From: Escherichia phage vB_EcoM_DalCa | Sequence record: NC_054908.1 | DNA: 64,000 nt | Strand: one strand, 5' to 3' | Part shown: positions 56,914 to 58,419 of the stretch, piece by piece | How positions within the stretch are numbered: the stretch's first letter is position 1 | Layout of the letters: every line of letters begins with the position of its first letter | Notes under the pieces: generated by a model | Databases searched by the model: none | What the model was told of the DNA's origin: nothing | The model's input: only the letters and a program-made list of their open reading frames with translations | Program-made: the position numbers and the translations under genes

Positions 56914-58419
56914 ATGATTGAATTAAAAGATTTACCTTTTGTTGATAGCGTTCCTGACGAAGGTCAGGAACGTATTTCATGGATTAAAAATGGTGAAGAA
57001 ATACTAGGAGCTAGCACTAAGTATGGAAACGATGGATCAATGAATAGACCAATTGTTTCCGTGTTTAAAAACGTCGAGGTTCTTGATGAAAATGTGGGAA
57101 TTCTTAAAACTGCCATTGAAACATCGCAGAAAGATATTAAAACAATTCAAGGAGTTTTAGATGTATCAGGAGATATAGAAGCACTATCGCAGATCAGTGT
57201 TAATAAAAATGACATATCAAATTTAAAGACACTTACTAATGAACACACTGATATATTAACTGGAACTAATAATACAGTTGACAAAATTATTGCTGATATA
57301 GGTCCATTTAATGATGAAGAAAACTCTGTTTATAGAACAATTAGAAATGATTTATTGTGGATTAAACAAGAACTAGGGCAATATTCTGGCCAAGACATTA
57401 ACGGTCTTCCTGTTGTTGGTAATGCTAGCACAGGAATGAAACATAGAATAATAACAAATAGTACATTATTATCTTCACAAGGCATTCGTTTAAGTGAATT
57501 AGAAAATAAATTTACTGAATCTGACGTAGGATCATTGACGGTTGAAGTTGGTAAATTACGCGATGAACTTGGTAATAAACCAGTAGATTTTGGACCAAAT
57601 ATTTATAATAGATTAAACACTATAGATGATAAACAAACTTTAATAAATTCTGATATAGCAGAAATTAAATCTTCTATTGGATACCCAGAAAATGTTTCTA
57701 TAATAACAGAAATTAATAATAACATTGGATACCCAGAAAATGTTTCTATAATAACAGAAATTAATAATAACAAAAGTAGCATTGAAGCTATTAATAATGA
57801 ATTAAATCAGAGTGAAGGTGTTAAACAACGCTTAACATCTATTGAAACTTCTATTGGTTCAGATGATATTCCTTCTAGTATTAAAGGAAAAATTAAAAAT
57901 CACACAACTTCTATTGAGTCTTTAAACGGAATTGTTGGTGAAAACACTTCGTCTGGATTAAGAGCGAATGTTTCGTGGTTAAATCAAATTGTTGGAACTG
58001 ACTCTAGCGGAGGACAGCCATCTCCTTCTGGGTCTCTATTAAATAAAGTTTCAGTGATTGAAGGAGAAGTTTCAGTTTTAAACAATAATGTTCAAAATAT
58101 ACAGGTCGAAATAGGAAATAATAAAACAGGAATTAAAGGCCAAGTTATTGAACTCACTTCACTTATAAATGGAAATAATCCTGACGGATCAACTGTTGAA
58201 GAACGAGGATTAACTAATTCTATAAAAACGAATGAAACTAATATTGCGGCAGTCACGCAGGAAGTAAATACAGCTAAAGACGATATATCCTCTTTACAGA
58301 GCAGCGTTCAATCTCTACAAGAAGCGGGTTATATTCCTGAAGCTCCAAGAGATGGGCAAGCATACGTTCGTAAAGACGGCGAATGGGTATTGCTTTCTAC
58401 CTTTTTATCACCAGCATAA
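56914..58419 (+). CDS. wac: Fibritin (whisker antigen control protein)
   Basis: 501 aa; heptad-rich coiled-coil; C-terminal [27 protein letters not shown] foldon; contains a 2 x 48-bp tandem duplication. Confidence 0.9.
57676..57771 (+). repeat. Perfect 2 x 48-bp in-frame tandem duplication inside wac (fibritin)
   Basis: ATTGGATACCCAGAAAATGTTTCTATAATAACAGAAATTAATAATAAC occurs twice head-to-tail, encoding [16 protein letters not shown] twice. Confidence 0.85.

Follow-up and report, generated by a model that had tools for sequence, protein, structure and literature searches.

A rare in-frame 48-bp tandem duplication in the fibritin gene wac of Escherichia phage vB_EcoM_DalCa

We have found that the fibritin gene (wac) of Escherichia phage vB_EcoM_DalCa, a T4-like Tequatrovirus, carries a perfect tandem duplication of 48 bp that keeps the reading frame. 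Taking the evidence jointly, we put a probability of about 0.8 on the reading that the duplication is genuine, that it originated by misalignment, that it adds an extra segment to the protein and that it is a rare, near-neutral and unstable polymorphism present on two haplotypes. What the duplication gives is a well-known protein in a length seldom met in nature, found in a public annotated genome, and not a new kind of system.

Self-comparison of the window (the whole stretch of DNA analysed, 64,000 nt) gives two 48-bp units lying head to tail with 0 mismatches, i.e. with 100% identity (Table 1). The 48-nt unit has the sequence ATTGGATACCCAGAAAATGTTTCTATAATAACAGAAATTAATAATAAC and the DNA junction between the copies reads ...AATAATAAC/ATTGGATACC; the boundary of the unit is ambiguous by 1 nt, owing to an A that follows both copies, and the choice of copy 1 or copy 2 as the 'new' copy is arbitrary. 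TRF reports the repeat with a period of 48, 2.5 copies and a score of 180, the extra half copy being an older imperfect repeat on the upstream side, and this is the top-scoring tandem repeat of the whole window. A perfect 48-nt tandem match is expected by chance ∼5e-23 times in 64 kb at 35% GC. Both units are in frame within the 501-aa ORF on the + strand and encode the same 16 residues, which confirms what the earlier note had read from the letters at 57676–57771. The ORF list of the window has no opposite-strand ORF of at least 60 aa at the repeat, and no promoter-like or terminator-like site was found in or beside it.

Table 1. Positions of the duplication, of the related sequence elements and of the neighbouring genes in the window
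Feature	Nucleotides	Strand	Residues	Basis and remarks
Gene 12 (short tail fibre), upstream neighbour	55354–56904	+		ORF list; Pfam gp12-short_mid, Collar, S_tail_recep_bd
wac (fibritin, neck whiskers and collar)	56914–58419	+		ORF list; 501 aa including the duplication
N-terminal neck-attachment region	56914–57150	+	1–79	1ox3_A match; gp13-binding role from PMC12929629
16-residue unit U0			246–261	Local three-unit reading
Quasi-repeat q1	57648–57675	+		TTCTGATATAGCAGAAATTAAATCTTCT; ends exactly at the left duplication endpoint
Copy 1 of the 48-bp unit	57676–57723	+	255–270	Aligned gap in all single-copy relatives
16-residue unit U1			262–277	Local three-unit reading
Quasi-repeat q2	57696–57723	+		Last 28 nt of the unit; recurs at 57744–57771; partner of q1
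Putative new eight-residue helical mini-segment IITEINNN	57700–57723	+	263–270	AF2 (low pLDDT) and heptad reading
Copy 2 of the 48-bp unit	57724–57771	+	271–286
16-residue unit U2			278–293	Local three-unit reading
Helix alpha11 equivalent (gp35 docking site in T4)	58036–58113	+	375–400	AF2 H375–402; downstream of the duplication
C-terminal coiled-coil segment and foldon trimerisation domain	58195–58416	+	428–501	1avy_A match
Gene 13 (fibritin-binding neck protein), downstream neighbour	58451–59380	+		ORF list; PF26809 Phage_T4_gp13

Fibritin, whose foldon is in wide use for vaccine design, is a textbook example of a segmented coiled coil. The identification of the ORF as wac, proposed earlier from the sequence, is supported by an exact match of its product to AYP69739.1 / YP_010067577.1 (‘fibritin neck whiskers protein’ of Escherichia phage vB_EcoM_DalCa), by a full-length phmmer match in the PDB to T4 fibritin 2bsg_A (query residues 2–501, E=5.6e-234) and by the flanking genes 12 and 13, a position with which both the Pfam content of the neighbours in related contigs and the annotations of relatives agree. 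The same PDB search places the crystallised N-terminal fragment 1ox3_A on residues 2–79 (E=4.8e-47) and the C-terminal fragments 1aa0 and 1avy_A on residues 386–498 and 428–501 (the latter with E=1.8e-32); the duplicated block lies outside every crystallised fibritin fragment. In an alignment of 15 sequences many residues at positions 4–60 of the N-terminal domain are invariant, as are Y473, P478, D480, G481, Y484 and W491 of the foldon, where AF2 predicts a beta-hairpin in DalCa (E484–487/E490–493). PF07921 (Fibritin_C) is present in all close relatives.

T4 fibritin (gpwac; 2bsg, 3j2o, 1aa0, 1avy, 1ox3) is homologous to the DalCa protein over its full length, with ∼80% identity between DalCa and P0088, a T4-type 487-aa representative. 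The two share the N-terminal neck domain, the segmented triple coiled coil, the IGYP loop, the alpha11 contacts, the foldon and the position between genes 12 and 13. By all features that sequence can test (full-length homology, N-terminal domain, segmented coiled coil, foldon and synteny), the DalCa protein is a T4-type fibritin. The length of 487 aa given for T4 fibritin in the earlier note is right (2bsg_A). A better length comparator is the 485-aa RB3/G2540-3 type, relative to which DalCa fibritin has gained 16 residues (501 versus 485).

Close relatives of DalCa fibritin all have one copy of the unit and 485 aa. The 485-aa fibritins of the RB3/G2540-3/G4498 type are 97–99% identical to DalCa in nucleotide sequence outside the repeat and contain the identical 48-bp unit; unlike DalCa, they have it in single copy. 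A 171-nt query across the repeat matched 175 of 50,697 phage records and, among the matches listed, all except Escherichia phage Ptacy1496 span 123 instead of 171 nt, which corresponds to one copy. A 53-aa peptide spanning the junction matched 201 records, just one of which covers at least 80% of the peptide. Among the fibritins retrieved from a collection of 5.8 billion clusters, the unit occurs once in 82 and twice in DalCa alone. The alignment with related wac sequences, proposed earlier as a check, leaves the relatives gapped at one 48-bp copy, and those in the 15-sequence alignment are all single copy down to 49% identity. The duplicated allele is rare (∼2 in ∼200 sequenced relatives, or about 1%). 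Judging from these comparisons, the single copy is the ancestral and near-universal state.

The earlier note had also held that fibritin length tolerates insertions. This stands for engineered fragments: truncated fibritins have shown a modular shaft from which segments can be taken out with the trimer still folding. In nature the length is less free than the note assumed. The length of fibritin stays within 477–487 aa in ∼130 retrieved relatives, down to ∼50–52% identity, and the only longer proteins are two distant relatives of 516 and 565 aa with insertions near the C-terminus. In the 15-sequence alignment the shaft has no other indel of >2 aa, and the IGYP loop has its G and its Y in every sequence. 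As far as these sequences reach, shaft length is strongly conserved in nature, which makes the 501-aa form an outlier; the conservation suggests that such changes would usually be selected against.

The other carrier, Escherichia phage Ptacy1496 (PQ863253.1, XTK85094.1; Czech Republic), is the sole one among the matches listed for the 50,697 phage records searched. In its gene for a 501-aa fibritin the perfect 48-bp duplication occupies the same site as in DalCa, and both copies are identical to the DalCa copies. The second ‘place’ reported for Ptacy1496 is most simply an off-diagonal match of the two copies, rather than a second wac. The surrounding haplotype is different: between Ptacy1496 and DalCa there are 31 differences in wac and 140 across the 4506 sites of the locus. 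Compared with DalCa, Ptacy1496 and single-copy G4498 show exactly the same wac differences, the Ptacy1496 protein is the G4498 protein plus the unit, and the two loci differ, duplication aside, by 3 nt in 4458. On the DalCa side, the closest wac is that of L007, a contig from a human-gut metagenome, with 7 mismatches; for G2540-3 the count is 11, ten of which cluster at 57957–58155, and P0135 (Logan assembly) is, exactly at the protein level, DalCa fibritin minus one unit. Exact look-ups of the gp13 and gp12 proteins led to related single-copy phages (L007, L017–L021). The duplication is therefore present on two distinct haplotypes from two laboratories, each with a near-identical single-copy sibling.

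The position of the duplication coincides with an older similarity in the gene. In the reconstructed single-copy ancestor we compared the 28 nt that directly precede each endpoint, left (q1) and right (q2, TTCTATAATAACAGAAATTAATAATAAC); the two stretches match at 18 of 28 nt, including the exact 10-mer CAGAAATTAA, at a spacing of 48 nt. Only ∼0.06–0.1% of positions in the window show similarity of this level at lag 48, and no other in-frame lag between 9 and 200 does as well for the left endpoint. The pre-existing quasi-repeat thus has a spacing equal to the duplication period, and both endpoints of the duplication abut it; this coincidence points to misaligned pairing as the origin, either by replication slippage or by unequal synthesis primed by recombination. 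Between the end of the exact 10-mer and the junction, which has a microhomology of 1 nt, are 8 nt with six mismatches. Simple slippage or a crossover within the 10-mer is excluded: it predicts a hybrid middle copy (...EIKSS/IGYP...), which is seen in neither phage, and no such KSS copy was found among the 201 records matching the junction peptide. Inverted repeats and quasi-palindromes able to drive template switching were represented at the repeat by weak AT-rich matches only. We infer a mechanism guided by misalignment, in which synthesis restarts from an end that matches poorly: a nascent or invading DNA end would have mis-paired between the similar stretches 48 nt apart in the single-copy ancestor, and synthesis would then have resumed 8 nt beyond the shared 10-mer with 1 nt of homology.

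At the protein level, the conserved IGYPENVS loop occurs twice, as do the eight residues that open the next coiled-coil segment, and the heptad register would be kept. The new mini-segment is flanked by two identical IGYPENVS loops (residues 255–262 and 271–278). Upstream of the repeat, I248(a)-I251(d)-I255(a) form the heptad core and GYP comes next; the new block shows the same pattern, with I264(a)-I267(d)-I271(a) as the core and GYP after it, and the original downstream segment is intact (I279(d)-I283(a)-N286(d)-I290(a)-I293(d)-L297(a)). The insertion should fold, because the new junction ...EINNN/IGYP imitates the native helix-to-loop transition upstream, ...EIKSS/IGYP. The AF2 model of DalCa has 14 helices, with a new one (H263–270) between H229–254 and H279–298, and that of single-copy P0002 has 13; both models are monomers of low confidence (mean pLDDT 58, and <50 over residues 252–277) and serve as a guide to segmentation only. 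T4 has the IGYPGNNSIITSVNTN block once (residues 257–272), whereas DalCa has its version twice, with 14 versus 13 predicted helical segments. The trimeric shaft would accordingly be longer by one loop and one mini-helix, much as the earlier note had expected when it spoke of one added loop or heptad block. A fibrous protein, on this heptad reading, can grow by a whole loop-plus-helix block with its register unbroken.

As for where this block lies in the working whisker, twelve fibritin trimers make up six collar blades and six whiskers (PMC12929629), and the fibre, ∼530 Å long, speeds the attachment of long tail fibres and keeps them retracted in unfavourable conditions (PMC3004832). In T4 the kneecap protein gp35 is reported to bind the fibritin ‘whisker helix alpha11’ (361–386) via N377, Q380, N381 and Q383 (bioRxiv 10.64898/2026.03.06.709160). 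The 11th AF2 helix of P0002 (359–385, corresponding to T4 ∼361–386) agrees in count and numbering with alpha11 of this 2026 preprint, and the four T4 contact residues correspond to N391, Q394, N395 and Q397 of DalCa, all invariant in the 15-sequence alignment. The duplication falls between the N-terminal neck anchor and the alpha11 equivalent and lengthens the spacer by 16 residues. We estimate that the spacer would gain 1–2.5 nm, or 2–5% of the ∼53-nm fibre, together with some rotation of what lies downstream.

That the duplication might be a sequencing or assembly artefact, the alternative named in the earlier note, with a single copy in the true DalCa genome expanded by the assembler, could draw on several observations. 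The exact 501-aa DalCa protein is on one contig only, the Logan protein P0135 lacks just the one unit, and junction words gave no match elsewhere, either as a 28-mer (IMG/VR) or as a 22-mer (JGI metagenomes, GTDB genomes); a collection of 15 billion proteins likewise contained neither the Ptacy1496 protein nor any of eight common 485-aa variants duplicated in silico. The allele rests on two deposited genomes. An assembly artefact is nevertheless unlikely, since the independently deposited Ptacy1496, from another country, has the identical duplication on a different haplotype. The duplication moreover keeps the reading frame and joins its copies in imitation of a native helix-loop boundary, and at 96 bp the repeat is below ordinary read length, while assemblers collapse short perfect repeats instead of expanding them; we regard an artefact in the DalCa record as very unlikely. 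If the duplication is genuine, its presence on two haplotypes may go back to one event or to more than one. A single origin, followed by homologous recombination of a short patch between co-infecting Tequatroviruses onto DalCa- and G4498-type wac, has in our estimate about an even chance of being the right account. Around the repeat, DalCa and Ptacy1496 share an identical stretch of 690 bp (57097–57786), on both sides of which they diverge by 2–3%, and a junction with 1 nt of microhomology is unlikely to arise twice. The wac locus and its flanks are, on the evidence of the alignments, clearly mosaic among relatives, as illustrated by L021 (a single mismatch over the 2962 bp that precede the repeat and 22 over the 1758 bp that follow it) and by the clustered mismatches of G2540-3. 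The same 690-bp block is, however, identical in single-copy G4498 and G9062 (G2540-3 differs at one site), so it holds no informative marker that would prove transfer. The other possibility is recurrent and reversible mutation, in which the quasi-repeat yields the same duplication repeatedly, the extra copy is soon lost by recombination or slippage, and each observed case is young. The position of the quasi-repeat against both endpoints, its rarity at this lag, the near-identical single-copy siblings of both carriers (G4498 for Ptacy1496, P0135 at the protein level for DalCa), the perfection of both copies in both phages and the rarity of the allele would all fit such a process. A proofreading polymerase, though, would be expected to resolve the misalignment inside the 10-mer and so give the hybrid KSS middle copy, which the records matching the junction peptide do not contain, and no other duplication or triplication variants were seen; recurrence is possible, in our view, and rather doubtful. 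A single origin with recombination is somewhat more likely than recurrence because the junction is a poor slippage target. The perfect identity of the copies, from which the earlier note had concluded that the duplication is very recent, is weak evidence of recency, as one difference or none is expected in 48 bp at 2–3% divergence; the allele may be shared across lineages or may recur.

The effect of the duplication on function is probably near-neutral or mildly tuning. An adaptive reading would be that the longer spacer from neck to kneecap helix alters the hold of whiskers on retracted fibres and is selected in some environments or hosts. The insert does lie between the N-terminal anchor and an alpha11 whose contact residues are conserved, shaft length is otherwise so tightly conserved that it appears to matter, and the allele is found on two backgrounds. 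Against selection for the longer form speak its frequency of about 1% and the partner proteins: the proximal rod gp34, the kneecap gp35 and gp36 have equal lengths in Ptacy1496 and G4498 (1289, 371 and 216 aa, with 1–4 aa differences), and this comparison between the two phages gave no compensating length change and no co-varying change in Ptacy1496; genes 34–36 of DalCa lie outside the window. Fibritin loops are also probably flexible enough to absorb 1–2 nm. We consider adaptive tuning unlikely. More speculative, and very unlikely, is the idea that the 48-nt quasi-repeat acts as a natural reversible length switch, by which Tequatrovirus populations would repeatedly gain and lose one loop-plus-helix block, shift the kneecap-binding helix by 1–2 nm and/or rotate it, and thereby tune fibre release to the environment. 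Most likely the duplication is a near-neutral or mildly deleterious, unstable length polymorphism. Whatever its effect, a phage with an extra segment between the neck anchor and the kneecap-docking helix offers a natural test of the role of whisker length and phase in fibre retraction and environmental sensing.

A literature search found no mention of DalCa, of Ptacy1496 or of a tandem duplication in the middle of the fibritin shaft. Among known variants, the fibritin of Ptacy1496 shares the duplication and its position with DalCa and differs in wac haplotype. The engineered fibritins E, M and mini-fibritin NCCF (1aa0, 1avy, 1ox3) are laboratory deletions studied in vitro, whereas DalCa has a natural insertion in a phage. 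The JS98-type fibritin has two foldon-like motifs with a coiled-coil spacer (Letarov & Krisch 2013, PMC3797505), and the difference between the JS98 and T4 types is a precedent for duplication or deletion of a single segment between fibritin types (PMC3797505). The JS98 event concerns the C-terminal foldon region and is old and fixed in its lineage, whereas that of DalCa concerns a 16-residue mid-shaft block and is perfect and rare.

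A mosaic pattern is visible in wac, the fibritin gene, and in the neighbouring genes when three DNA records of relatives (L002, L007 and L021) are compared with DalCa. L021 carries one mismatch in the 2962 bp upstream of the perfect 48-bp tandem duplication vs 22 in the 1758 bp downstream, and in the single-copy relative G2540-3 the mismatches are concentrated in one short tract within wac. Such an uneven spread of mismatches in wac and its flanks implies recombination breakpoints within the gene. The first 597 nt of the DalCa wac are also found, with 100% identity, in L020 (a 7054-bp Logan contig, SRR8354018), which stops there, ∼165 nt short of the repeat.

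Coordinates of the features in the window
Feature	Positions	Remark
Gene 5	43330-45057	ORF
Imperfect tandem repeat	44797-44928	inside gene 5; period 24/48 nt, 74-83% matches
wac	56914-58419 (+)	501 aa
G9062 deletion	57265-57276	equivalent position
End of L020	57510	equivalent position
48-bp tandem duplication	57676-57771	in wac
G2540-3 mismatch tract	57957-58155	in wac

A second natural length variant is the 481-aa fibritin of phage vB_EcoM_G9062 (L005/L018), whose wac has lost 12 bp in frame, so that TNNT (residues 118-121) is missing. This deletion falls within predicted shaft helix 2, where it shifts the heptad register and takes away no whole segment. Of the fibritins retrieved, P0133 (565 aa) and P0134 (516 aa) alone have large natural insertions, and these fall not in the central shaft but in the last coiled-coil segment, directly before the foldon (columns 454-540 of the 15-sequence alignment A1); PF23991 is also present in P0133, and PF05531 in P0134.

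In the long-tail-fibre genes (34-38) of the near-identical phages G4498 and Ptacy1496 (L022/L023), gp34, gp35 and gp36 have equal lengths and gp37 measures 981 vs 988 aa. The gp35 of G4498 has all seven groove residues reported for T4 (E210, R213, R257, Y259, Y265, Y299 and Q301), with a numbering offset of −1.

The gene 5 tandem repeat codes for octapeptides of the cell-puncturing needle, the C-terminal beta-helix of gp5: VEGNGTIL, VKGNVTIV, VEGNADIT, VKGDATTL and VEGNQTNT. Octapeptide repeats are an already known feature of this needle.
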